Below the pieces are notes generated by a model, which was given only the letters and a program-made list of their open reading frames with translations, was not told where the DNA came from and made no database searches. A program made the position numbers and the translations under genes. DNA of 64,000 nucleotides from positions 1 to 64,000 of IMG/VR virus record IMGVR_UViG_3300035696_000019; one strand, 5' to 3'. The DNA is from a virus. Numbering within the stretch: position 1 is the stretch's first letter; the number at the start of each line of letters is the position of its first letter. Below, one piece after another: positions 14,399 through 61,838 of the stretch.

Positions 14399-15000
14399 AG
14401 CGCGTTCTCGGGTGCGGTGTTGGCGGCCAACTGGTCGATGCTGATGCTGGCGGAAATGAGGTGCGAACCGACACGACAGCGCCCGTAGATAAGCTGAACC
14501 GGTGCGCCCTGGCCCGTGGTATTCACCGCGCCGTTGAAGTAGTAGGAGCCGTATTGCGTGCCGTTGTTATTGTTGGGCTGTGGAGCTAGCATCTGCACAA
14601 TGCCGCCTACCATCAATGCCACGCCGAGTTGAGCAACCCCGACGTTATCTGTGAGATAGCCAGCCACCACCAATGCCGTGCCAACAAGGATCTTCGAAGC
14701 CGCCCCTGATGCGCCTTCAATGATAGGTTCGAAGCGCATGACGGCTGGCTTGCGCTCCATGATGAGCGTTTCCTCCGATACCTCTTCGACGTAGCCGGTG
14801 TCGTATTCGCAGACGATGTGATACTTGCTGTAGGTCTTGAGGTTGTCGCGAATCCAGCGGATCAATTGATTGCCAGACAGGTTCACGTTGATCAGCTTCA
14901 GCGCGCCAAGTGGCGAGTTGACGCACAGTTCCCACTCGCGCCCGAACTTCTCGCCCATCACACCGTCAAGAATGACGCGGGTCAGTTTTTGGTCGCTCAC
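14395..15000 (-). CDS. tail assembly protein I-like
   Basis: LDGVMGEKFGREW...SYYFNGAVNTTGQGAPVQLIYGR. Confidence 0.88.
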   Translation of the reverse strand: MSDQKLTRVILDGVMGEKFGREWELCVNSPLGALKLINVNLSGNQLIRWIRDNLKTYSKYHIVCEYDTGYVEEVSEETLIMERKPAVMRFEPIIEGASGAASKILVGTALVVAGYLTDNVGVAQLGVALMVGGIVQMLAPQPNNNNGTQYGSYYFNGAVNTTGQGAPVQLIYGRCRVGSHLISASISIDQLAANTAPENAL

Positions 15001-15767
15001 ATCAGCTCCCGGTGTCGAAGATGATGCGTGGTGTGCTTGAGCCAGTAACTACCGCCATACACGTCAAAACGCGACAGCCGACCATGCGGGTGGTGCAAGA
15101 AGCGGTCGTTTCCGACATAAACGCCGATGTGGTTGGGGATACTGCCGTAGGTCTGGATCAGGAAGATATCGCCCGGCTTGGGTTCGACATTGATCAGTTG
15201 CTCAAAGCCCGTTTCGGAGAAGTTGTCTACGAAGAAGTTGTGACCCTTCTCCCAGAACTCGGGGATGCGCAGGTCGCCATGCGTCAGTAGTTCGATGGCG
15301 TATTCGCGTCGGTAGTAATCGCAAATCAGCGCATAGCAGTCGAGCATCCCCCACACGTAGGGGCGCCCAACATAGGGCTGTTCCTCGTCGCGCGGTTGCA
15401 CAATGGTGGGCGGCAAGACGACGTTCAGCGATCCATCTTCCTGGCGGTAGACGCTGACGATATACCACGGCACACTGCCCGCATTGCACGCTGCTCGATC
15501 TTCCGGCGAGGGTCTTGCGGCGCATTCGGTGTGAGAGTGCCAGACGGCCAAAATGGGGCCGTCTAGCTTGGCGGCTTCATATTCGCCGCGACCAATCGAA
15601 AAGAAATCGCGTGGCCTCTCGTGGATGTTTTCGCAGGGAATGAACCGCGCACGCTTGTGCGCGCCAACGATCAATCCGCACGCCTCTTGCGGATAGCGAC
15701 GTTTAGCCTCCACAACCATGGCGTCGCGCAACGCATCATGAAGCTCAACTATTACCGTTGATGTCAT
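14997..15767 (-). CDS. tail assembly protein K-like (JAB plus NlpC/P60)
   Basis: EACG, WHSH...PSPED (JAB); DCY...NHIGVY..FLHH (NlpC/P60). Start at MTSTVI. Confidence 0.9.
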   Translation of the reverse strand: MTSTVIVELHDALRDAMVVEAKRRYPQEACGLIVGAHKRARFIPCENIHERPRDFFSIGRGEYEAAKLDGPILAVWHSHTECAARPSPEDRAACNAGSVPWYIVSVYRQEDGSLNVVLPPTIVQPRDEEQPYVGRPYVWGMLDCYALICDYYRREYAIELLTHGDLRIPEFWEKGHNFFVDNFSETGFEQLINVEPKPGDIFLIQTYGSIPNHIGVYVGNDRFLHHPHGRLSRFDVYGGSYWLKHTTHHLRHRELM

Positions 15768-38294: not shown

Positions 38295-38546
38295 TCACTC
38301 CGGCTTTGGCCGGCGTCCTTGTGTGTGCCAGTGGAATGCGTGCCAATCAACCTCGCCACCGCAGTGCTGACAACGGTAGTGACGCGGATGGCCGAGGTAA
38401 TTGGCCGACGACTCAACCGGCGCGAATTCGTGATACGCGCAGCCGTTGAGTCTTGCCTGATTGAGCTTGACCGACCCGGCCAGCGATAGCAGTTCATCGC
38501 GTGGCAGCCCCGTCAAGGCGGTGAGCGTGTCAAGGCTGTCGCTCAT
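38295..38546 (-). CDS. small Zn-ribbon protein
   Basis: CAYH...CQHCGG. Confidence 0.6.
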   Translation of the reverse strand: MSDSLDTLTALTGLPRDELLSLAGSVKLNQARLNGCAYHEFAPVESSANYLGHPRHYRCQHCGGEVDWHAFHWHTQGRRPKPE

Positions 38547-39196
38547 TTGAATTCCTTGAGGAGATGCACCAGTGCGTCGCCGGCGTTGGTCAGCGAGTCG
38601 TCCTCGGTGAAGCGTTGCGCCTTCATGGTTTGCGTAATCAGATCTTCCACCCAATCCGCATCCTCGACCGGCACCTTGAACTTCATCACGCGGTGCGTCT
38701 GCAATGTCTTTTCAGCAGCAGGGGGAGTGCTCGCGGCGAGTTCTTCGGCGGTCAGATCAAGATCGTCCAACGCTATGCTTGAGTTTGAGAACAGCGAAGT
38801 CAGGTCTTCTTCACTCATCGGCATGAACATCGCAAGTTCTTCGGGCGAACCCAGATCAAGCAGCAGATCGTTGAGTTTCAGCGGGTCATCTTCGCCATAG
38901 CGGTTGTTATCGACCAGGCTGATTTCCTTCGCGCGTCGGTCGCTGATCTTGCCGAGATTCACAATCGGCACTTCGGTCAGACCAATGCGCTTCGCGGAGA
39001 GCCAGCGATGTTCGCCGCCAATGATTTCGCGTTCGCCACTGGGTAACTCGCGCACCACGATCGGTTTGAACACGCCAAACTTGTGAATACTCTCGTCGAG
39101 TTTGGCTTCGTGATCCGGCGACATGACGTTCACGTTCCAGGGGTTTGGAGTCAATGAATCAATTGGCGCGGTTTGAAGGGAAAGCGTGTTTGGCAC
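38543..39196 (-). CDS. ParB/Srx N-terminal domain protein
   Basis: LTPNPWN...KPIVVR...IIGGEHRWLSA...DNNRYG. Confidence 0.88.
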   Translation of the reverse strand: MPNTLSLQTAPIDSLTPNPWNVNVMSPDHEAKLDESIHKFGVFKPIVVRELPSGEREIIGGEHRWLSAKRIGLTEVPIVNLGKISDRRAKEISLVDNNRYGEDDPLKLNDLLLDLGSPEELAMFMPMSEEDLTSLFSNSSIALDDLDLTAEELAASTPPAAEKTLQTHRVMKFKVPVEDADWVEDLITQTMKAQRFTEDDSLTNAGDALVHLLKEFK

Positions 39197-39271: not shown

Positions 39272-40834
39272 ATGAGCAAAGAAATCATCACCATCGCCAG
39301 CAACGCCACATTGGGCAAGCTGCACAACTCCTCGCGCGAAGCAAAACTGGAGGCGCAGCGCATCCTGTCGTATGTGGTTGCCGGCGCCGAAATGAGCGAG
39401 TCGTTCAAGCGCGGCACCTGGGATGGTCGCAGTTCTTTCTTCGACTACCGCAGTGGCACGTTCCCGGCGGGCTTTGTGCATTTCCTGGCGCACGGTCTGC
39501 GTCGTGCCGGTTTCCAGACCAACTGTGTTGCGCGCCCCTTCCCCGAGCCAAAAGGTCAGAAGCGCGCCAAGGTCGATGCCTTCCCCGAAGACCCGCGTTA
39601 TGACTATCAACATCAGGTGGTAGAGAAACTACTGACGCACGGCAAGATCATCGCGCGCGTGGCAACAGGCGGCGGCAAATCAAGGATTGCCAAACTGGCC
39701 TTTGCCGCCATCCGTCGCCCGGCGCTGTTTCTCACCACGCGCTCCATTCTCATGTATCAGATGAAGGATGCGGTTGAGCGCGACATGGGCATCGAGGTCG
39801 CGGTGTTGGGCGATGGTCAGTTCGGCGTGGTCAAGACAGACGCCAATGGCGACGAACGTCGCTTCATCAAGATGTTCAACGTCGGCATGGTGCAGACGTT
39901 GGTATCGCGTCTGGCGCTCCCCTGCCCCGACGATTCGGTCGAAGTGCAGAATAAACAGATGGCAATTCGCAAGCAGACCATCGACCTACTTGGCAAGTTT
40001 GAACTGGTGATCGGCGAAGAGGCGCACGAAGCCTCCGGCAACAGCTATTACGAAATTCTGCAACATTGCACCAGCGCGCATTACCGCCTGGCTATGACCG
40101 CCACGCCATTCATGAAGGAGAACGAAGAGTCGAACATGCGCCTGATGGCCGCATTCGGCCCGATCGGCATCCATGTCAGCGAGCAGACGCTTATCGAGCG
40201 CGGCATTCTGGCAAAGCCCTATTTTAAGTATGTCGATCTAACCGAATGCCCGAAGCATCTGTCGCGCGGCACGGGTTGGCAGGCCGCTTACCGTCTCGGA
40301 ATCGTCACGCACGCACAGCGCAACCGCATCATTGTGGACGAAGTGAAGCGCGCCAGTCGCTACGGATTGTCGTCAATGGTATTGGTGCAGCAAACCAAAC
40401 ATGGCGATCTACTGCGCGACTTGATGACGGAAGCTGGTCTGCGCGTCGAGTTCATCCGTGGCGAAAATGATCAGAAAGGTCGCAAGGCGGCACTTGCGCG
40501 TCTGAGCAACGGCGAGATCGACGTGCTGATTGGCACCACAATTCTCGACGTGGGCGTGGATGTGCCGGCGGTGGGGTTGGTTATTCTGGCAGGCGGGGGC
40601 AAGGCAGAGATCGCTCTGCGTCAGCGGATTGGCCGGGGCTTGCGCGCCAAGAAGAATGGCCCGAACATGTGCTTCATTCTCGACTTCAGCGACGCTCAGA
40701 ACAGCTACCTGAAAGATCATGCCACGCAACGTCTGAATGTGGTGCGCAGCACGCCGGGGTTTGTCGAAGGGGTGTTGAGCGGCGCCGACTTTGATTATGA
40801 GGGACTTGGTTTCGAGAAATTGACTTCAAAATAA
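39272..40834 (+). CDS. superfamily 2 helicase
   Basis: ATGGGKS, GEEAH (DExH variant), TATP, DVGVDVP, QRIGRGLR. Confidence 0.93.
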   Translation: MSKEIITIASNATLGKLHNSSREAKLEAQRILSYVVAGAEMSESFKRGTWDGRSSFFDYRSGTFPAGFVHFLAHGLRRAGFQTNCVARPFPEPKGQKRAKVDAFPEDPRYDYQHQVVEKLLTHGKIIARVATGGGKSRIAKLAFAAIRRPALFLTTRSILMYQMKDAVERDMGIEVAVLGDGQFGVVKTDANGDERRFIKMFNVGMVQTLVSRLALPCPDDSVEVQNKQMAIRKQTIDLLGKFELVIGEEAHEASGNSYYEILQHCTSAHYRLAMTATPFMKENEESNMRLMAAFGPIGIHVSEQTLIERGILAKPYFKYVDLTECPKHLSRGTGWQAAYRLGIVTHAQRNRIIVDEVKRASRYGLSSMVLVQQTKHGDLLRDLMTEAGLRVEFIRGENDQKGRKAALARLSNGEIDVLIGTTILDVGVDVPAVGLVILAGGGKAEIALRQRIGRGLRAKKNGPNMCFILDFSDAQNSYLKDHATQRLNVVRSTPGFVEGVLSGADFDYEGLGFEKLTSK

Positions 40835-41549: not shown

Positions 41550-41660
41550 GGGCTGAAAGGGTGATGTTTTGAGGATTTGGCTCCGGGGTGAAAGGGTGAT
41601 GTCTGGAAGGTCGAAGACAGTGGAGGGTGGGCCTCCTCTACATAAAAATTTTTCTAAGAC
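41550..41660. other. probable genome terminus / packaging initiation region
   Basis: Abrupt compositional switch at ~41640, convergent transcription, AAAAATTTTT tract and a TGAAAGGGTGATGT direct repeat. Inference. Confidence 0.4.
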
Positions 41661-41753
41661 ATGAGCTATTCAGCACGCACGCGCTACGGATACAAAAAAT
41701 CGACCACACATATATGCGCGGTCGATTAGTTTATATTCGCTCGCGATTATTAT

Positions 41754-42284
41754 TTATTCTATCGTGTAGATATATTCTATCGTCGGATATATCGACGTTT
41801 TATCATCGATGCATTGCATGATATCGTTCATGCATTGTGTAGTTATTATTCCGTCCTTATTCAGATTCTCTAAAGCGTCAAAAGCATAAGAGATATTCCG
41901 CTGTTTTTGATTGATCAAAGCAGTCATTTTTCGCGCTGTCGATTCTACGATCGACTGATACACAAGCGCGTAAAAGATAACCAGCGTCCTTTCACACACA
42001 GTCGCGTCATACGCGCGTTTCTTGCTCGCGAGCATATCAAGGTATTCCGATGCATACGCGCGCGCACCAGTCAGTGTTTCTGTAGTCGCTACGCGGTCGG
42101 AGATGTAACCGCTCGACTTTACTTTGACGTAGTAGCGTGACTCCTGCTCACTCCAAAAGATCCACGCTATATCATGCGCACTGGATACATGCGCGACGAT
42201 AGAATCAGACTTTGCGGTAAAGAAAATTTTGCGCGCTGCATTAGCAATCATTGCGAGACGTTGCGCTTTAGTCATGGTGCTCAT
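41754..42284 (-). CDS. early hypothetical protein
   Basis: 176-aa ORF with AAAGGA RBS; poor in Gly and Pro. Confidence 0.7.
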   Translation of the reverse strand: MSTMTKAQRLAMIANAARKIFFTAKSDSIVAHVSSAHDIAWIFWSEQESRYYVKVKSSGYISDRVATTETLTGARAYASEYLDMLASKKRAYDATVCERTLVIFYALVYQSIVESTARKMTALINQKQRNISYAFDALENLNKDGIITTQCMNDIMQCIDDKTSIYPTIEYIYTIE

Positions 42285-42308
42285 TTTAATATCCTTTCAG
42301 AATTAAAA

Positions 42309-42342
42309 ATTAGTGACTGAATAATATTATTCAGTCACTAAT
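42309..42342. repeat. perfect 34-bp palindrome
   Basis: ATTAGTGACTGAATAAT|ATTATTCAGTCACTAAT. Confidence 0.95.
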
Positions 42343-42348
42343 GAGTTA

Positions 42349-43131
42349 TTATTTAGATTGGAATAGTCGCGCTACTTCACGCGCGATGTCGGAGTCCAGC
42401 AAAGTGATACTGTCTTTTGCTGCACCTTTTTTGATGCTCGCAACACCGATAAAGGACAGCATCATGCGCGTGCTACTGCACTGAGTCGATGCTGTCGACT
42501 CGCTGCAGTTGTGCAGTCGCTTTATATCCAGCGTCTGATCCATCGCATCGTATGTGATGCTGCTGCAAATCGTCATGCGCGCGCTTTTATTATCGACATA
42601 GTTCAAACGAATCAGATTCGATATGATAGAGCGCGAATAACCATCAAAACCGGATTTAATACCACTCGCGATAGCAAAAATCGCTTTGCGGATTTTTTGC
42701 ACTGCGTAAATTGCAACAAAATCCGCGCTGGACTTGTCTGTGATGCTGATTTTTTGCGCAAGCGCAAGCAGGTCGACATCCAGATCAAGCATCTTCTTAA
42801 TCGCGAGCTTTGCAGCGCTTTTTTCAAAAGCTTTACGCTCTGTAATAAAGCTGTGCGTCTGATTCGCGCACGGTGCGTGATCCGCGCGAGCTTGAAGCGA
42901 CTCTATAAGAGCGGAATAAATCATGTCGATTTTGTTTTCGTTCTTTTTTGCTGCGAGTGTCGCAGCGCGCTTTGCTGCGATTTCCGCTTTTTGCGTATCG
43001 GTCAAAGCTACTTTTTTAGCAGTAGTCTTTTTGACGCTTTTCTTTTCAGCAGTAGCGGAAACAACCGCATCGATAACGGTATCAACTGCTGTATCCACTG
43101 CTGTATCCACTGCTACGGTTTGCTTTTCCAT
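42349..43131 (-). CDS. early hypothetical protein (Lys/Ala-rich N-terminus)
   Basis: GGAG RBS before MEKQTV; upstream TTGTAG..TGTATAGT promoter at ~43203-43231. Confidence 0.75.
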   Translation of the reverse strand: MEKQTVAVDTAVDTAVDTVIDAVVSATAEKKSVKKTTAKKVALTDTQKAEIAAKRAATLAAKKNENKIDMIYSALIESLQARADHAPCANQTHSFITERKAFEKSAAKLAIKKMLDLDVDLLALAQKISITDKSSADFVAIYAVQKIRKAIFAIASGIKSGFDGYSRSIISNLIRLNYVDNKSARMTICSSITYDAMDQTLDIKRLHNCSESTASTQCSSTRMMLSFIGVASIKKGAAKDSITLLDSDIAREVARLFQSK

Positions 43132-43489
43132 GATGCATATCTCCAGATAACGCGCAAAGGTGCGCACATCGATGCAGCGCGTTAGTGCGCTGTCGATGTA
43201 GTCACTATACACGCTTACTTTTCATCTACAAAAAATATGTAGCTGAAAACTTGACCTAGATCAATTTACAGAATGAGTTACAAATAACGCGCGGATTAAC
43301 AACAAACGAACTGGATACCTGAGCGAATTACTCGGAATCGCAGAGCAAAGTTGATTTATGTCAAACAAACGAACGGTGTCGGAGTGAAAACGCGGTCTAG
43401 CTACTTGACAACCGCTAAAAGCAGCTCAAAAACGCTGTTTTTCTTGATATAAGTCAACAAAATCGACCGGTTTGACCAATTTTTAAGCA

Positions 43490-43825
43490 GCCCTGGACGG
43501 TTGCGAGACGCAATGAAGCGGTTCCGACACTTTCCCTAGGGTTTCCGACGGTTTTCGGTATTTCTCCTACCCCTAGGGCACCTTCCCTAGCCCTTACCAG
43601 TCCTCGGGTGGCACCTAACCAGTCCTCGGGCGGCCCCTAGGCAACCACCCCAAGGCACAAAGGGAATCCCCAAGGCTCCAGGCATCAAGCCCGAGGTGTC
43701 ACCAGGCGTCGGGCGGCTCCTCACCAGGCAGGCAATGGCAACGCCTAGGCGTCAGGCAATAAAAAACCCTAGGTGTATCCTCGGGCGTGAGAAAGTGAAA
43801 GTCCCGAGAGTTGCCCGAGGAGATA
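43490..43825. repeat. CCTNGG-dense non-coding spacer
   Basis: About a dozen CCTAGG, CCTCGG/CCGAGG and CCAAGG sites in ~330 bp. Confidence 0.85.
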
Positions 43826-43860
43826 AATCCATAAACCGCACGGTGGCGGTTTCTGCTGCT

Positions 43861-44157
43861 TTAGAATTCATCCAAAGCATTTGCAATTAGCGTTTTGAAC
43901 ATAACGCGCGCTTGTCTGTAGTCGCGATTATTGAAAACGAACGCGGTGCGGAATGCGTCCTTTTCCATCAGCGCGCTATTTGCGTGAGAGATATTAGAAC
44001 AACCTTTTGCGTCAAAAATTGCAACAATGTGCGTGTATTCGTCCACGGTAGAAAAATCAAAGTGCTGACCAGCGATAACCGCGAACCGGTTACCCATGAT
44101 GGATTTAGCGGATTCCATCATCGCGGAATATTGCTCAAACGTCGTTATAACTCGCAT
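43861..44157 (-). CDS. early hypothetical protein
   Basis: Own promoter (44193-44221), AAAGG RBS and a downstream hairpin (~43833-43852). Confidence 0.75.
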   Translation of the reverse strand: MRVITTFEQYSAMMESAKSIMGNRFAVIAGQHFDFSTVDEYTHIVAIFDAKGCSNISHANSALMEKDAFRTAFVFNNRDYRQARVMFKTLIANALDEF

Positions 44158-44192
44158 GGTGCAGACCTTTCGTGTTTGGTTTCGATGAAATA

Positions 44193-44221
44193 ATTATCGC
44201 AACCGGATATTGGCACTTCAA
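44193..44221 (-). promoter_or_regulatory. sigma70-type early promoter
   Basis: TTGAAG-17 bp-GATAAT. Confidence 0.75.
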
Positions 44222-44426
44222 GAGAGTTAAACACGATTGGTTTGGGCGTTTTAAACCGTAGGTGTGGCCTAGCGATCCATAAGCACCGCCTAGGTGTTGT
44301 GGCCTAGGCATGGTCAGGCAGAGGATTGGCCTAGCGATCAATAGGCAGTGCCGAGGAATTGAGTGAGATTAATACCTAGGTGTTGTGGCCTGGAGATGGA
44401 TGGGCAGTGCCTAGGAGGATGCGAAG

Positions 44427-44523
44427 TAAACCGCACATAGGCGGTTTATCTGGCTACTCCAGATCACGCTCAGCAAGTCGTGCGCCCTCCAAATCATCCA
44501 CACCAAACACGGTGCGCGGTTCG
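44427..44523 (-). ncRNA. candidate small RNA or micropeptide transcript
   Basis: Promoter at 44530-44558 and hairpin at 44427-44448 with no convincing ORF between them. Confidence 0.35.
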
Positions 44524-44529
44524 CACATA

Positions 44530-44558
44530 ATTATCACAACCGGATATTGACGTTACAA
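44530..44558 (-). promoter_or_regulatory. sigma70-type early promoter
   Basis: TTGTAA-17 bp-GATAAT; spacer nearly identical to the 44193 promoter. Confidence 0.7.
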
Positions 44559-44653
44559 GCAATCAGCGTTGGGAGATTTGAACGAATTTTCGCTCGCCCG
44601 AGGAGAACCCGAGGAAGAATTAAAACAACCACTCATAGGAGTGGTCTGGTTGA

Positions 44654-45088
44654 TTACCATGGGAGAATGCAGTTTTCACCGTCGTCATCATCGAACTGGA
44701 TTTCATCCAGATCAGCGAAATAAACCGCGCGACCAAATTTTTCATGCATATGCAAGCGGTCATCATCAAAGCACAATTGCTCTACCGAGAGAATGATTGC
44801 ATCGTGTTGAATGTATTCCGCGCTGTAGTGCTTGCTTAAACACTCATTCAATTCCGCGTAGTCGGAACCCAACGCGAATTGTTCTTCAATCAGTTCTCCA
44901 GTCACGATGTTAATCGTGCGGTAAAACATGACATCGTTGAAGTAATCCGTTTCACCGTCGTCATTAGTCATGCTGACCACGCTGACCACGTATGACGCGC
45001 TGCGATTTCCAGCGTTGACGTAGCAACACTCAAACAGCGGTATAGATTTAAACTGACTGCTTGCACGGTCGATAGCGTTTTGTTCCAT
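44654..45088 (-). CDS. acidic early protein
   Basis: MEQNAIDR..., strongly Asp/Glu-rich; promoter at 45130-45158 and hairpin at ~44628-44645. Confidence 0.75.
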   Translation of the reverse strand: MEQNAIDRASSQFKSIPLFECCYVNAGNRSASYVVSVVSMTNDDGETDYFNDVMFYRTINIVTGELIEEQFALGSDYAELNECLSKHYSAEYIQHDAIILSVEQLCFDDDRLHMHEKFGRAVYFADLDEIQFDDDDGENCILPW

Positions 45089-45129
45089 GATGTTACCTTT
45101 CATTCGGTAGCGAGTTATCAGACGCATTT

Positions 45130-45158
45130 AGTATCCATGACCGGTATTGGCACTTCAA
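45130..45158 (-). promoter_or_regulatory. sigma70-type early promoter
   Basis: TTGAAG-17 bp-GATACT. Confidence 0.7.
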
Positions 45159-45529
45159 GCGATCTACTTGGGAGCTTTCTACTCAGGGAGCACCCATCGT
45201 CCGGTAGGATACCGTTTCCTCGGGCGCTGACGCCCCTAGGAGACGCCCAAACACTCTAGAGCTACCCAACCCTTCCCCTGCTAGCGAAAACGCCTAGGAA
45301 GCGCTCTGTGTGCCCGAGAACATTTCACCTATCCCTACGTCGCCTAGGTGTCGGTAGGCAACGCCAACACCCAACCAGGGATGCGCCGCACTCAACCAGA
45401 CCTCGGGCGGCTCCTATCCAGGCTTCGGGCGGCAGAGAAAACGCCTTGGGGTCAGAGTGTGTTGAAACGCCCGACGGTGCGCTGCGTCGGGTGAGGTGAG
45501 TGACCGCGCGATGACGCGGTCAAGATCGA

Positions 45530-45811
45530 TCAGTATTCGATTTCCAGCGTATCGGACATTTCCTCACCGTAACCAAAATAATTGTCCGTTTGATCGCGCA
45601 CCGTCGCGAGCAGCGCACTTGCTGCGTAAAGATCAACGGTGGTCATGGTGACTTTGATGTTGCGCTCGTTTTCACCATCGGTCTGAAAATCCAGGCGGAT
45701 GTCCGCGACCACACCGTCGTTATCGCGGATCAGTTGGGCACAAACATAGTTGTCGTAGTCCGGGTTAAATTCCGTGATCTTCACGGTTCCTTTGCGGGGG
45801 ATATGTGTCAT
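45530..45811 (-). CDS. acidic early protein
   Basis: GGAG RBS; promoter at 45846-45874 and hairpin at ~45501-45522. Confidence 0.75.
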   Translation of the reverse strand: MTHIPRKGTVKITEFNPDYDNYVCAQLIRDNDGVVADIRLDFQTDGENERNIKVTMTTVDLYAASALLATVRDQTDNYFGYGEEMSDTLEIEY

Positions 45812-46164
45812 GGTGGTTTACTCCGTGGTGGGTTTCGATACTCACAGTATCGCGCAGCGGAATAGGCTTAGAAAGCGAAAAACAGGCTGTTTGCGCAATT
45901 TTTCACTCATGCGCCCGCGAGGTGATGGGTTGAATATTGCTCGCAAAGTGCATTTATTGGCATTTTCCACCGCGCTCAACTGTGACACTCGGCAGGGTGT
46001 CACATAGAGGAGAAATGCACCCCTCGGGTGTCAATCGTGGTCTGAGATGGGTCAGGCAGCGCCTCGGGCTGGCCTGGAGTGGAATAGGTAGTGAGTGCGC
46101 TATGGCGTGGCCTAGGTGCAGAGAGGCAGCAGAACAACCGGACTGATGACCGGTCGGGTGTTGG

Positions 46165-46359
46165 TTACGGCATACAGGGATCAACCCTGGCATCGGAAAC
46201 CCAACCGAGTTGCATGGCGTGTTGCTCGGACTTTGGCAGTGCGTCGAACTGGGCGCGCGTCATGTCATTGCATTCGATGATGGCTTCGATCAGGTCGTCG
46301 TCGCCCAGACGACGGTTGAACTCGGCGTCGATCACATCTCCGTCACGGTAGGTTTCCAT
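46165..46359 (-). CDS. small acidic early protein
   Basis: GGAG RBS; promoter at 46392-46420. Confidence 0.7.
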   Translation of the reverse strand: METYRDGDVIDAEFNRRLGDDDLIEAIIECNDMTRAQFDALPKSEQHAMQLGWVSDARVDPCMP

Positions 46360-47280
46360 GATTTTATGCTCCGGTCGGTTGGTATGAGCACAGCATGACC
46401 ACGCAGTATTGGCATGAAAACACGTTTTAGAGGGATTTCGCGCAATCTTTCATTGTCGTTTTCGAGGGTGTAGGGGCATAAAATGCTAAAACGGCGGATT
46501 TTGAGCGGCAAGGGTGTCCCATGCCGAGGGGTTCGGCTGATGGCAGGGTTTCCCGATTCCGTGGTATCTCTGTGGCCGAGGGCTTTCGACTCCCGCCAGT
46601 AGACGGTAGGCACCAGGTGAGCGCCGCAGGCGCGAGCCGGTGCCGTTCTACTCCCGAGGATATCACCAGGCCGAGGGCTTTCCCTCTCCGCTACCTAGGA
46701 TCAGTCCTACCACTCCCTAGGGGTCAATCCCTCTGCCAACCATGCGCCTTCGGCGCCAACTGGCACTGGGAACACCCTTTCCAGTCTATAGTTGGCAGGG
46801 AATTTTTATACCGTGGATGAATTTTTCCCTCGCGCGCGCGCATTTAGAAAAAACCGACGAAGCGAGAGGAGGAGCCGGATGACGACGAGCGAAGCGAGGA
46901 GGAAGAAGGCTCCGTAGCGAAGCGAAGGAGGTTTTTTCCAGAGAGGAAGTAAATCAAGAGAGTCGAAACTCAGAAACAAGCCCCCCTCCCCCAAACGCTC
47001 TATGAAACTGAGCACCAGTAACGACTTGCTTGTCACTAGCGGGAGAGGGAAACCGTTTCAAGGCGTTGAGCTTAGTCGTGTCGATGGCGAAACAACAGAG
47101 CGAACCCAGAAACAAGCCCCCAGAAGAAAGAGTAAAGCGAGAGAACAAATCGCTCAACATCCCGAGACGGATAGTAAGTCACGGGTGATTTATCTGTCAA
47201 GTGGAGTAGGTGAGACCAATGCAGGTCGGTGAGAGGGGTAGATGGCGACAATGAGTGGAATACCGCCGCCCGCCAGTCAC

Positions 47281-47340
47281 CCCACTGTTGACCCACTGTT
47301 GACCCACTGTTGACCCACTGTTGACCCACTGTTGACCCAC
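47281..47340 (+). repeat. 11-bp tandem repeat (CCCACTGTTGA) x5 plus partial copy
   Basis: Seen directly; an extra copy lies at ~47403. Confidence 0.95.
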
Positions 47341-48334
47341 CAGTTACTCCTCTATAGCCGCCAGCAACTCTCGCTTCACTCCCACCACCACCACACTATG
47401 AACCCACTGTTGATTCACTGTCGCTCTCACCATTGCCCCCACTATCCCGCTATTCCATCTCTCGTCATTCCCCACTCTTCTCCCGATCGTTCTCTTTCTC
47501 TCCGGTATCTTATGGTCTGGTCATGCATACTCACTGGCCTGGAGATAGACAACCAGTTTGGCCTTGTAATGTTCGGGCAGCGTTTGTGCGTTCCCTGATG
47601 TGTGATTGGATCAGATGTTGATCTGGATGGTTTGGCGCGCTGTTATGGATTGCTACGTCTTGGGAATGGATATCTGGATTGGTCGGTTCGGGTAGTCTTT
47701 TCGCTTACGGTTTGTGATTGCCCGAGGCGGTTTCATTTGATCGAGGAAGGGGTTCGGGAGCCGCTATTGTGTTTGATTACGAGAGAAGTTCTCGGGAACC
47801 GGTGTTGGAGGATTTCCCGTTCCATTCATTTGACTTTTCCATTGATTTCCCCTTGTTTTGTCTTTGTGGGGTTTCATGGGGAGTCAGCCGTATGTTTAAT
47901 CATGAATTGTTTTGTTTTATATTTAATATTTATATATACGGTGGGAAGAGGTATGGGGAGTCGTCGGCTCCCAGTGTTCGCGGTTTTGGCGAAACGCTTG
48001 TAATCGCGTTGTGCGCGCTTGTTTTATGCTCTGGTATATCTCGGTATACCAGCGATTCGGGGAACGCTTCTATGGTTGTTTCTGTGGTCGGAATCGCTAT
48101 ATCACTTGCATCTATGGTCTGGATAGACTCAGATTGCGGATTGTGACTCGGGTGTCAATTTGTTTCATTGCCAAATTCCCCTTTAGAATCATAGGCTTAT
48201 AACGCTTATTGCGTTAATCCTCGGCGTCGAATTGAGAAAAACGCCTGAAAATGCAAAAAGTGTCATTTGCACACAAGCCCGAGGGGTGATTCAGCAATTG
48301 GAAAAGGCGACCGGGAGTTCCGATCGCCTTTACT

Positions 48335-60645: not shown

Positions 60646-61011
60646 TTAATCCATCCAGCGAACCATATCCTCCCACTTGTCGGCATGGTCGAACAGCCCG
60701 AAGAATTCATTGTGCCACTTGCCAATCGCGTTGAAGGTGTCGAAGCCCTGACGCTTCAAATTGGCGAGAAAGCGCCCGACTTCGCGCGTCGTGACGCAGG
60801 AACAATCGCTGGATTGCTCGATCAGGTAAGCCCTTGTGAATGAAGGATTCACCGCGTCGGTCGCATAGAACCCAACTACCTCAGCCCCATCATGACGCGC
60901 CTTCATGACGCGCCCCTGATTGTTCGGTATAGCGGCTTCAAGACGATACCCGATGATCCGGTCAGTCGTTAGAGTGCGGACGGTGCGAATACGGACAACA
61001 GCGCGTTGCAT
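60646..61011 (-). CDS. hypothetical protein
   Basis: AAAGGGG RBS. Confidence 0.6.
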   Translation of the reverse strand: MQRAVVRIRTVRTLTTDRIIGYRLEAAIPNNQGRVMKARHDGAEVVGFYATDAVNPSFTRAYLIEQSSDCSCVTTREVGRFLANLKRQGFDTFNAIGKWHNEFFGLFDHADKWEDMVRWMD

Positions 61012-61391
61012 GGTAAACCCCTTTCGTTGGTCGTTGCTGCGTTTCAGTGATTGCAGAATACAAACCGGACTGCGGGGTTACAGCGTGTTTACAGGCGACT
61101 TTGCAAGATGCCCAAGCCTCTCAACACGCGCGCGTATTAATGAGCGCGCACGCGATAATCAACACATGCAGGGAGAGCAAGCGGTGGCATTGGGAGAGTC
61201 GTCGGGTGAGTGCGTGGGCGGTTGGGTGCGTCGGGCAAGACGCCTAGGACGGACAGACGGTTGGGCGTATGAGGAGAATGCCTAGGGCGAAGCGCCGCGC
61301 AAATAAAAAGGCACATCAAATGATGTGCCCGTATACGCCTATCCAGGCATGAAATGGCAGGGAAATCGAAACCAAAATCAGAACTCCCAAC

Positions 61392-61838
61392 TCACCAGGC
61401 TTCGCCACCGTCAATCAGACCGGCGTCACTCGATGGTCGATCGGTCGGAACAGGCGGCGGAGGCGGTTGCCTCTGCTCCAGTGTGTTGTCTTCCGACTCG
61501 GTGAAGTTGCCCTCCTCATCCACCAGGCTGTCCGTCCAGCGCAGCATGAAGTCCTCGTAGGCGGCAACTCCCGAAGATTCCGTGCCGAAGAACTTGTCGC
61601 GGAAGTTGGGATCATCGACCAACTGACCAGCATCCAGATAATTGAACACGCGCAACTGGAACAGTTCCCAATAATCCTCGAACGAGTCGGGGGTGGACAC
61701 CTTGCCATACCATTCCAGCAGCACCCGCACCTTGCCATTATCAAACTGGCGGATGGTGCGATAGCTATCATCGGCGCGCTTGTTGATCCAGCCGGATTTA
61801 CTGATCAACAGGCCATCCTTGTCCATATACGCCACCAT
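61392..61838 (-). CDS. hypothetical protein
   Basis: GGAGG RBS; terminator hairpin at ~61309-61329. Confidence 0.7.
   Translation of the reverse strand: MVAYMDKDGLLISKSGWINKRADDSYRTIRQFDNGKVRVLLEWYGKVSTPDSFEDYWELFQLRVFNYLDAGQLVDDPNFRDKFFGTESSGVAAYEDFMLRWTDSLVDEEGNFTESEDNTLEQRQPPPPPVPTDRPSSDAGLIDGGEAW

Follow-up and report, generated by a model that had tools for sequence, protein, structure and literature searches.

The stoperators of Cluster A mycobacteriophages (L5, Bxb1) and the conserved inverted repeats (CIRs) of phage phiC31 are systems in which many sites of one phage protein are distributed over the gaps of gene blocks. In the KorB-OB system of IncP plasmids, a palindrome is located upstream of the promoters of several toxic genes and is recognized by one element-encoded protein, which acts at a distance. 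The partition systems tubC/TubR, parC/ParR and pB171 ParB contain tandem short repeats, spaced by about one helical turn, which are bound cooperatively. In addition, promoter-early stem-loop (PeSL) cassettes were reportedly described in T4-type phages by Arbiol et al. in 2010, and in phages T5 and T7 the DNA near the first-entering end is rich in repeats. Here, we describe a locus within a 64-kb stretch of DNA (the window) that constitutes the first part of the 105,923-bp IMG/VR virus record IMGVR_UViG_3300035696_000019 (CheckV completeness 98%). The locus is composed of (i) intergenic spacers crowded with the palindrome CCTAGG and related CCNNGG hexamers, (ii) the small early gene cassettes between these spacers, and (iii) an adjacent region, referred to as the purged zone, which is free of GGS/SCC trinucleotides (GGC, GGG, GCC and CCC) and contains the gene p287, encoding a candidate binder of the arrays.

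The arrays resemble stoperators and CIRs in having multiple sites across the short gaps of a controlled block, instead of a single operator. However, stoperators and CIRs comprise one element of 13-17 bp per gap (stoperators are also asymmetric and oriented), whereas this locus has 3-15 copies of a 6-8-bp palindrome per gap within one 3-kb block, with a center that varies between lineages and with a purged neighboring unit; moreover, the binding of a protein is something we infer here. The KorB-OB system shares with the arrays palindromic sites that are set back from several promoters, but KorB is a CTPase of the ParB family with 13-bp sites, one per promoter, and p287 contains no ParB domain. 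PeSL cassettes are similar in that hypervariable early genes form promoter-gene-hairpin units with repeated boundaries, yet they lack arrays of short palindromes and a dedicated gene for a binding protein. Of these centromere binders, TubR has a winged-helix fold and is the protein that p287 matches best in fold; in contrast to the centromere arrays, those described here have no linked partner nucleoside triphosphatase (NTPase) and are interleaved with genes. Finally, the first-step-transfer region of T5 and the left end of T7 also carry repeat-rich non-coding DNA among the first-expressed genes transcribed by the host polymerase, but the present element is an SSU5/nickie/RHEph10-like, not a T5-like, phage and its arrays consist of a defined palindrome that is excluded from the remaining genome. 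As judged from this comparison, none of these systems seems to combine dense arrays of a bare palindrome, a variable center, genome exclusion and a purged unit. A literature search on CCTAGG, phage and intergenic returned nothing relevant, and a keyword search of the papers on RHEph10/pLM21S1 and on a Nickievirus isolate found the arrays unmentioned in the passages returned. Thus, systems of a regulator plus a site array are already known, and it is the form of the arrays and the purged unit that were not found described in the literature searched.

We tentatively favor the explanation, at somewhat below even chances, that the spacers are operator-like arrays of duplex-DNA sites that control or insulate the early cassettes, with p287 as the likeliest binder. 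The binder would read a short, symmetric CC-NN-GG element, in this genome mainly (G/C/T)CCTAGG(C/G/A) and CCTCGG. The p287 protein, encoded beside the arrays and carrying a near-invariant, presumed recognition helix, would be this binder, and many copies bound to the five cassette-flanking arrays would form a higher-order nucleoprotein complex. Such a complex might act on the strong early promoters of host type, shutting off, silencing or insulating them along with the toxic or costly accessory genes under their control.

The hexamer CCTAGG occurs 18 times in the genome. Fifteen copies lie inside positions 43535-46716 (43535, 43572, 43636, 43744, 43768, 44289, 44303, 44375, 44410, 45235, 45293, 45343, 46111, 46694 and 46716), every one in spacer DNA, and the only others are located at 61243, 61281 and 68735. 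Six spacers (1,211 bp in total) were compared with the other intergenic DNA (13.3 kb), with genes called by a crude codon-usage caller. The density of CCTAGG was 12.4 per kb in the spacers (15 sites), 0.15 per kb in the other intergenic DNA and 0.01 per kb in coding sequences; the respective values for the CCTNGG/CCNAGG class were 28 (34 sites), 1.65 and 1.24 per kb. The Poisson probability of the spacer enrichment is between 1e-24 and 1e-30, and first-order Markov shuffles, which keep the dinucleotide make-up of each spacer, yielded 0.8 +/- 0.9 CCTAGG (maximum 5), compared with the 15 observed. At least one CCT/AGG half is present in 34 of the 37 CCNNGG sites of the spacers.

These counts bear on an earlier description of the window made from its sequence alone (the original prediction), according to which sites of the CCTNGG class crowd the spacers (about a dozen in the first one), are missing from the genes but concentrated between them, and include no CCTAGG in the structural region. 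All of this agrees with our data: 12 sites were counted in the intergenic interval of the first spacer, positions 1-43534 contain no CCTAGG, and the excess over other intergenic DNA is overwhelming. Two further statements were upheld in part. The proposed site family is enriched with respect to CCTAGG and CCTCGG/CCGAGG, but its third component, CCAAGG/CCTTGG, taken alone is not notably enriched in this genome. Likewise, the spacers were said not to be copies of each other, but they have in common degenerate 17-40-nt repeats of two types, composed of ACCAGnCCTCGGGCGGC units and of TGGCCTAGG...GGCAG units, respectively.

All genes of the module are located on the minus strand, and its organization follows a simple grammar: the gap that separates the hairpin terminator of a cassette from the sigma-70-type promoter of the following one is occupied by an array. 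The site closest to the promoter is placed approximately 40-150 bp upstream of the -35 box, so that the core promoters are not overlapped. The largest array (array 1; 43485-43830), containing 5 CCTAGG, 5 CCTCGG/CCGAGG and 2 CCAAGG as well as near-sites, has the p98 cassette terminator on one side and the p287 promoter region on the other. Array 2 (44255-44425; 4 CCTAGG and 1 CCGAGG), built of the TGGCCTAGG...GGCAG units (type B), is located upstream of the p98 promoter. It is followed by a mini-array (44590-44620) of two CCCGAGG 11 bp apart, placed between the p157 terminator and the promoter at 44558-44530, and by array 3 (45160-45460; 3 CCTAGG, 2 CCTCGG, 1 CCTTGG and near-sites), upstream of the p157 promoter. 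Array 4 (45985-46125; 1 CCTAGG and 2 CCTCGG) is again of type B, and array 5 (46515-46735; 2 CCTAGG and 4 CCGAGG) adjoins an origin-like non-coding region. An outlying mini-array (61220-61300), with two CCTAGG 38 bp apart, obeys the same grammar, being located after the terminator (~61300-61330) of the gene at 61392-61838 and upstream of the gene at 60646-61011. The order of terminator, array and promoter was also observed in locus L040 and in Rhizobium phage RHEph10.

Three cassettes are preceded by near-identical 33-nt promoters (TTGAAG-17-GATAAT, with an upstream TG) at 44221-44193, 44558-44530 and ~45158-45130, and hairpin terminators are located at 43832-43852, 44427-44447 and 44627-44646. 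The 33-nt identity (44190-44222, 44527-44559 and 45127-45159) includes the spacer between the -35 and -10 boxes, ACCGGATATTGGCAC. Since sigma-70 needs no conserved spacer, this sequence may represent a separate operator. The cassette gene p98 (43861-44157, minus strand; no family) has its promoter at 44221-44193 and its terminator at 43832-43852. The gene p157 (44654-45127, minus strand) lies between the promoter at ~45158-45130 and the terminator at 44627-44646; its true start is probably the ATG at 45088, preceded by AAAGG, because the -10 box (45135-45130) lies only 3 nt from the ATG at 45127. Between the two, a short minus-strand unit (44427-44558), bounded by the promoter at 44558-44530 and the terminator at 44427-44447, contains only a 14-codon open reading frame (ORF) and may be a small RNA or micro-peptide cassette. 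The genes p93 (45530-45811) and p64 (46165-46359), both on the minus strand, have no homologues in 80 related loci, and the cassette proteins as a whole (98, 157, 93 and 64 aa) are hypervariable and almost devoid of homologues in these loci. Searches of PHROG, Pfam and NCBIfam with the cassette proteins, p176 (a second gene of the purged zone) and p287 gave nothing meaningful. It is probable that the hypervariable early genes serve in anti-defence or host takeover. The promoter family (D6) and the terminator family (D16) are repeated between the cassettes, and gene content is variable, so the cassettes, as distinct from the arrays, correspond to PeSL-type units.

The arrays do not have the features of structured RNA, of clustered regularly interspaced short palindromic repeats (CRISPR) or of tRNA repeats: Rfam gave no match at E <= 1 in the 41-50-kb region, and no tRNA was found. 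An RNA role is therefore unlikely, because the arrays follow terminators, only the palindrome is conserved and the Rfam search was empty. A reading of the CCCTAGGGAGA-type sites as T7-like promoters was also rejected, as the sites are too numerous and too short; no single-subunit RNA polymerase was detected among the proteins scanned.

The portal, terminase, capsid and tail proteins place the genome in the SSU5/nickie/RHEph10 group (portal identity 51-56%), which comprises siphoviruses and phage-plasmids of approximately 100-120 kb. No match to the region was found when 50,697 phage records were searched at the nucleotide level, single-query protein locus searches of IMG/VR with p157 and p287 returned nothing, and the exact 17-mer from array 2 was not present in IMG/VR. 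The helicase gene (39272-40834) was used as an anchor, by which 80 IMG/VR loci were obtained (helicase 51-68% identical). L numbers denote loci and G numbers genomes (G000 is the genome described here); L146 is RHEph10 and L211 is Pseudomonas phage nickie.

Most of the loci with enough downstream flank contain CCTAGG clusters 2-8 kb past the helicase and none in the 10 kb upstream, and this holds across G+C contents of 41% to 67%. The array regions of 21 pooled loci contained 223 CCTAGG sites, and their upstream flanks (307 kb) contained 0. Complete relatives have 17 of 17 (G005), 21 of 24 (G009) and 4 of 5 (G001) of their CCTAGG sites within a single 5-kb segment. Clusters of CCNNGG are found at the same place in a Paraburkholderia prophage, in RHEph10 and in nickie, and arrays are also present in records that IMG/VR classes as proviruses. 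Dozens of related phages thus share this organization. Of the refuting conditions named in the original prediction, the two that can be computed, namely no significant enrichment over intergenic DNA and absence of the pattern from relatives, are both contradicted by the data. In several lineages the clustered hexamer is different: CCATGG in L019, L027, L030, L051, L041 and L063, CCGCGG in L064 and nickie, CCAAGG/CCTTGG in L065 and L092, and CCATGG/CCACGG in RHEph10, the common denominator being CC-NN-GG. The CCGCGG/CCACGG arrays of nickie (L211 2529-2879 and 4839-5047, i.e. nickie 101028-101378 and 103338-103546) are located between small early genes, which carry TTGCAAGCGTTTA-type promoters. 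Exclusion of the site from the remaining genome is complete in the CCTAGG-type relatives examined and partial in nickie. Phages SSU5 and Cyrano have no arrays: CCTAGG and CCATGG are absent throughout their genomes, and these contain no 10-bp-spaced CCNNGG pairs.

Analysis of 275 unique CCTAGG sites revealed that the information is confined to the hexamer and one symmetric flanking base on each side: A accounts for 2% at position -1 and T for 7% at position +1, with G and C preferred, which gives the 8-bp palindrome (not-A)CCTAGG(not-T). The minimum spacing of the sites is 10 bp, and exactly 10 bp is also the commonest spacing (15 unique pairs); RHEph10 contains six CCNNGG sites in a row, separated by five 10-bp steps and one 11-bp step. 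Where the array DNA of moderately diverged relatives could be aligned, 39 of 65 sites (60%) were kept, compared with 38% of other hexamers. The arrays therefore show repeated sites, conserved regulatory positions and purifying selection, as is typical of regulatory sites. Sites of a dimeric protein that binds duplex DNA would be expected to be symmetric, to observe a steric minimum of one helical turn, to be under selection and to be excluded from the remaining genome, as these are.

The gene p287 (42349-43212, minus strand) is the sole conserved gene of the module. A profile of its family identified a same-strand member 2-5 kb past the helicase in practically all loci whose flank is long enough, and also matched in G001 and RHEph10. 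The homologues are all unnamed and without Pfam domains; only two PHROG families were matched, with no function assigned, and the protein atlas returned only clusters of hypothetical proteins. A tblastn search of phage records with p287 and a search of PDB sequences with the profile gave no match. In RHEph10, the family member is a 252-aa ORF (NC_034248 96195-96953; L146 8196-8954), encoded in another frame on the same strand as the annotated gp103 (96170-97060), which appears to be an Arg-rich nonsense frame.

The family has a near-invariant segment, NCSESTASTQASSTRMML, and a helix of the form STASTQxSSTRMML. In the AlphaFold (AF2) model of p287 (mean confidence, pLDDT, of 73), the N-terminal part is helical, and the modelled C-terminal domain consists of a helix, a helix containing the invariant segment, a beta-hairpin and a further helix. 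Foldseek returned only weak matches to ArsR/SmtB proteins, whereas a structural scan with residues 172-287 retrieved winged-helix DNA binders throughout (TubR, Z 7.4; RosR, Z 7.3), including the winged-helix domains of MukF, MarR, PadR and the origin recognition complex (ORC). The C-terminal domain of p287 is thus predicted to be a winged helix. A homodimer prediction with residues 70-287 scored 0.00, which is not evidence either way.

In a tree of 53 p287 homologues, the dominant hexamer departed from CCTAGG at least five times. The Ser residue of the TA[S]TQ motif is replaced by Asp in two separate CCATGG lineages and by Glu in the CCAAGG lineage, while SST[R] is changed to SQI[K/R] in another CCATGG lineage. 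These substitutions are suggestive of helix variants that track the central dinucleotide of the arrays. In a gene-by-gene presence table, p287 alone was both array-adjacent everywhere and predicted to bind DNA. Two other candidates were rejected as the binder. A 301-aa helix-turn-helix protein (64793-65698) is absent from all 18 relatives searched, and the ParB_N (ParB N-terminal-domain) protein encoded divergently from the helicase gene (38543-39196, minus strand), a core gene across the SSU5/nickie/RHEph10 supergroup, also occurs in the array-free SSU5 and Cyrano. A weaker ParB_N paralogue is located approximately 1.8 kb from the latter gene. Taken together, the symmetric 8-bp site, the 10-bp minimum, the position between terminators and promoters and the linkage to a winged-helix gene suggest that the arrays consist of sites for a DNA-binding regulator.

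Several observations weigh against this explanation, or against parts of it. That p287 binds the arrays is itself something we infer. Its fold matches all have Z scores below 8, and so support the fold and not the function. A palindrome of 6-8 bp is short for a winged-helix dimer and is more typical of ribbon-helix-helix proteins or restriction/modification enzymes. The covariation between helix and hexamer comprises few independent events and has exceptions: L092 combines the standard helix with CCAAGG arrays, and in L063 and L064 the motif has changed with little change of the helix. Phage nickie has arrays and a purged unit, but a p287 homologue was detected in it neither by the profile nor by hhalign. 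Several genes, including that of the phage sigma factor, match the presence/absence pattern of p287. The sites lie off the core promoters, and the conserved promoter spacer could be the true operator. Lastly, silencing of the prophage only would not be a general function, as nickie-type phages are reported to be lytic (PMC8537276). An early-gene shut-off or insulation is more likely as the general role than silencing confined to the prophage, since nickie-type phages are reported to be lytic while this genome and others contain integrases or belong to the provirus class.

The left edge of array 1 coincides with the sharp border of the GGS-free zone. The original prediction regarded the arrays, together with the purged end, as the best candidate for an undescribed system in the window, and our data agree with it in that the arrays look like an undescribed system tied to the neighboring purged zone. 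The purged zone (41631-43490) comprises the p287 promoter region, p287, a 34-bp palindrome, the gene p176 (41754-42284) and a terminator (41698-41727), and thus coincides exactly with the last transcription unit(s) of the block. In 1,859 bp there are 0 copies of GGC, GGG, GCC and CCC, with approximately 78 expected from the composition of the zone; the genome mean is 71 per kb. The observed/expected ratios of CC and GG in the zone are 0.38 and 0.37, respectively, CG and GC are enriched, and GGA, GGT, CGG and CCG occur at near normal levels. The 34-bp perfect AT-rich palindrome (42309-42342; 15-bp arms) is located directly after the p287 stop codon. Long palindromes are also found 3' of the p287 homologue in L073/L074 (13283-13320 and 13421-13452); the palindromes that follow p287 are probably bidirectional terminators.

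Many relatives contain GGS-free runs of 0.9-2.2 kb abutting the first array. Such runs are present in RHEph10 (98813-99982) and in nickie (103798-105074; this unit contains gp019 and comes directly after the arrays), and are absent from SSU5 and Cyrano; the combination of arrays and a purged unit is therefore conserved from peat-soil phages to RHEph10 and nickie. Second copies of the p287 gene, located elsewhere in the block in L061 and L024, are not purged, and therefore the rule goes with the place and not with the protein. Homology of the p287 family to the purged-unit gene of RHEph10 was not established by hhalign (E 0.021, probability 2%), and neither was homology to that of nickie or to p176. 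In the purged zone of RHEph10, the annotated plus-strand genes gp098/gp097 look wrong, and a 204-aa minus-strand ORF (L146 11196-11810) is more plausible.

The purge does not depend on the central dinucleotide of the arrays, which is in line with the constant CC/GG of the array motif. Avoidance of half-sites was rejected as its cause, as GGA is a common site flank and yet is unpurged. Avoidance of CRISPR protospacer adjacent motifs (type I-F CC, NGG), of primase trinucleotide sites or of mRNA-interferase motifs, and codon bias, were rejected because the loss is strand-symmetric and spares GGA, GGT, CGG and CCG. To our knowledge, no mechanism demands the loss of a trinucleotide class from both strands over a whole transcription unit. 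It is conceivable, though improbable, that the arrays and the GGS/SCC-free unit are halves of one DNA-marking system that reads CC/GG content. In such a system, p287 or another phage protein would load at the CCNNGG arrays and act on DNA bearing GG(C/G), so that only fully purged transcription units would remain expressible, and this composition switch would determine which part of the genome is active when infection begins or during the prophage state.

The other explanations considered are presented in descending order of plausibility. In the first, the arrays would be a replication control element that titrates or handcuffs an origin binder (possibly p287), as do incA of P1 and crr of P4, and thereby sets the timing of replication or the copy number; we regard this as unlikely. 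The arrays abut an origin-like non-coding region of approximately 1.5 kb (46800-48330), which contains a (CG)5 run (46828-46845), purine-rich GAAGCGAGG repeats (46860-46930), six tandem 11-bp iterons, ACTGTTGACCC (47284-47345), and an AT-rich stretch (47900-47945). Iterons of the TGTTGAC type adjoin the arrays in RHEph10, and repeats are found at this place in L040. Moreover, winged-helix domains are typical of origin binders, that of ORC is among the fold matches of p287, and phage-plasmids are relatives of the phage group (PMC7969092, PMC4447125). However, the origin function is deduced from these features, with a GC skew that gives no origin signal, and searches of Pfam and NCBIfam assigned p287 to no Rep family. 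Iterons are usually direct repeats of 17-22 bp, whereas the array units are 6-8-bp palindromes with irregular spacing, interleaved over 3 kb with four or five expressed cassettes and including a mini-array 14 kb away (61.2 kb). Since true 11-bp tandem repeats and an AT-rich stretch adjoin the arrays, we consider the latter to be neighbors of the origin-like region and not its iterons.

A second alternative places the arrays at the leading end of the genome, either as pause or ratchet signals for staged entry, like the T5 injection stop, as the original prediction had raised, or as packaging sites; the purged unit would then be the first DNA exposed in the cell. Injection stops gained no support here and we consider this alternative very unlikely, although the module does form an early block in which the promoters are strong and of the host type. 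If cos were positioned immediately before the terminase genes (~33-35.5 kb), approximately 6-14 kb would separate the purged zone and the arrays from the last-packaged, first-injected end. A Nickievirus terminase groups with the terminases of 3'-cos phages (PMC8537276). The contigs of several relatives stop 0.1-1 kb past the arrays, but contig breaks at repeats are expected assembly artefacts. Furthermore, we know of no protein that reads DNA sequence as the DNA is ejected. Arrays persist in provirus-class records and in the Paraburkholderia prophage, which, however, does not argue against a role at infection.

The original prediction had also viewed the spacers as decoys for a restriction or defence protein or as substrates of a phage DNA modification. 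CCNNGG hexamers are indeed sites of type II enzymes (AvrII CCTAGG, NcoI CCATGG, SacII CCGCGG, BsaJI CCNNGG), and a bare 6-8-bp palindrome with a symmetric flank is in the style of type II restriction/modification sites. A phage enzyme would then modify the sites densely, or the sites would titrate a host protein that reads CCNNGG. The avoidance of palindromes in this genome, from which GTAC, GGATCC, CTCGAG and CAGCTG are absent, indicates restriction pressure, and the neighboring unit is purged of GGS/SCC. Nevertheless, a role of this kind appears very doubtful. A decoy made of real sites would be costly, as unmodified sites are cut and one cut is lethal, so cleavable sites would offer no protection. 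Among the approximately 85 proteins scanned with Pfam or PHROGs, some of which have no assignment, there was no methyltransferase, TGT/DpdA-like or other modification gene, and the modification proposal thus found no support either. In addition, the substrate of an enzyme needs neither a 10-bp minimum nor a fixed placement between terminators and promoters.

In a further alternative, early genes would be swapped at recombination joints, homology-based or site-specific, formed by the arrays and by the promoter and terminator sequences that the cassettes share, comparable to PeSL or attC. The cassette genes are hypervariable while the arrays persist, the 33-nt promoter (D6) and terminator (D16) sequences recur from cassette to cassette, and L073 differs from L074 (97% identical) by an insertion of approximately 830 bp (~14670-15515) that extends from just past the first array to a CCTAGG. 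This is the only indel example, no recombinase is linked to the module, and joints need no dozens of sites, symmetric 8-bp core, genome exclusion or 10-bp minimum, so as a primary function this has only a slim chance. Recombination is compatible with the operator-like arrays that we favor, and could be a side effect of them. A 44-nt repeat is present at both borders of the L073/L074 insertion.

The last alternative, a partition centromere bound by the small partner of a type Ib ParA and serving the segregation of a plasmid-prophage, is hardly credible: type Ib/II centromeres are short-repeat arrays bound by small dimeric proteins, the genome encodes a ParA followed by a 102-aa ORF, and p287 finds its best fold match in the centromere binder TubR (Z 7.4), but the co-occurrence with a partition NTPase operon, usually adjacent, that is expected of a centromere is not seen, as ParA is missing in 10 of the 17 complete relatives (among them the two with the densest arrays, G005 and G009) and lies approximately 46 kb from the arrays in this genome, and the arrays are present in provirus-class records and in nickie-type phages reported to be lytic.

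If operator-like arrays are the correct explanation, widespread phages and phage-plasmids of approximately 105-118 kb control their hypervariable early genes by an unusual system of a regulator plus site arrays. Paraburkholderia, Rhizobium and Pseudomonas syringae are among their hosts, and the use of some of these phages in biocontrol is under consideration. The purged unit is a more striking feature than the arrays and, being unexplained, could raise the novelty of the system beyond that of a variant of regulator-plus-array control. As RHEph10 and nickie are cultured, the system is directly testable.

The analysed stretch is listed for two DNA sequencing runs of peat metagenomes, as low-depth contigs, and for no RNA run. 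Apart from the genes discussed above, the genome encodes a split DnaE, RecA, SbcCD, a FEN-type nuclease, ThyA, CobS/CobT-like proteins, a DnaB-like helicase, a primase, a small XerD-like recombinase and a 412-aa integrase. The ParA of type Ib, with the 102-aa ORF behind it, is located at 92706-93371. An ECF-like sigma factor gene (Sigma70_r2; 86653-87312, i.e. L088 2653-3312, minus strand) has tblastn matches in array-bearing relatives and in RHEph10, and none in nickie, SSU5 or Cyrano. One relative is contained within a 450-kb contig of a Paraburkholderia metagenome-assembled genome, with its portal gene approximately 12 kb from the module, and appears to be integrated as a prophage; the element described here is therefore temperate or has temperate near relatives. 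Palindrome avoidance is very strong genome-wide: GTAC is absent from all 105.9 kb, and AGGCCT, CAGCTG, CTCGAG, GAGCTC, GGATCC and GGGCCC were each observed 0 times in the whole genome, with 9-21 copies expected. Other palindromes, e.g. CTGCAG, GACGTC and CCGCGG, are approximately 10- to 30-fold rarer in the whole genome than expected.

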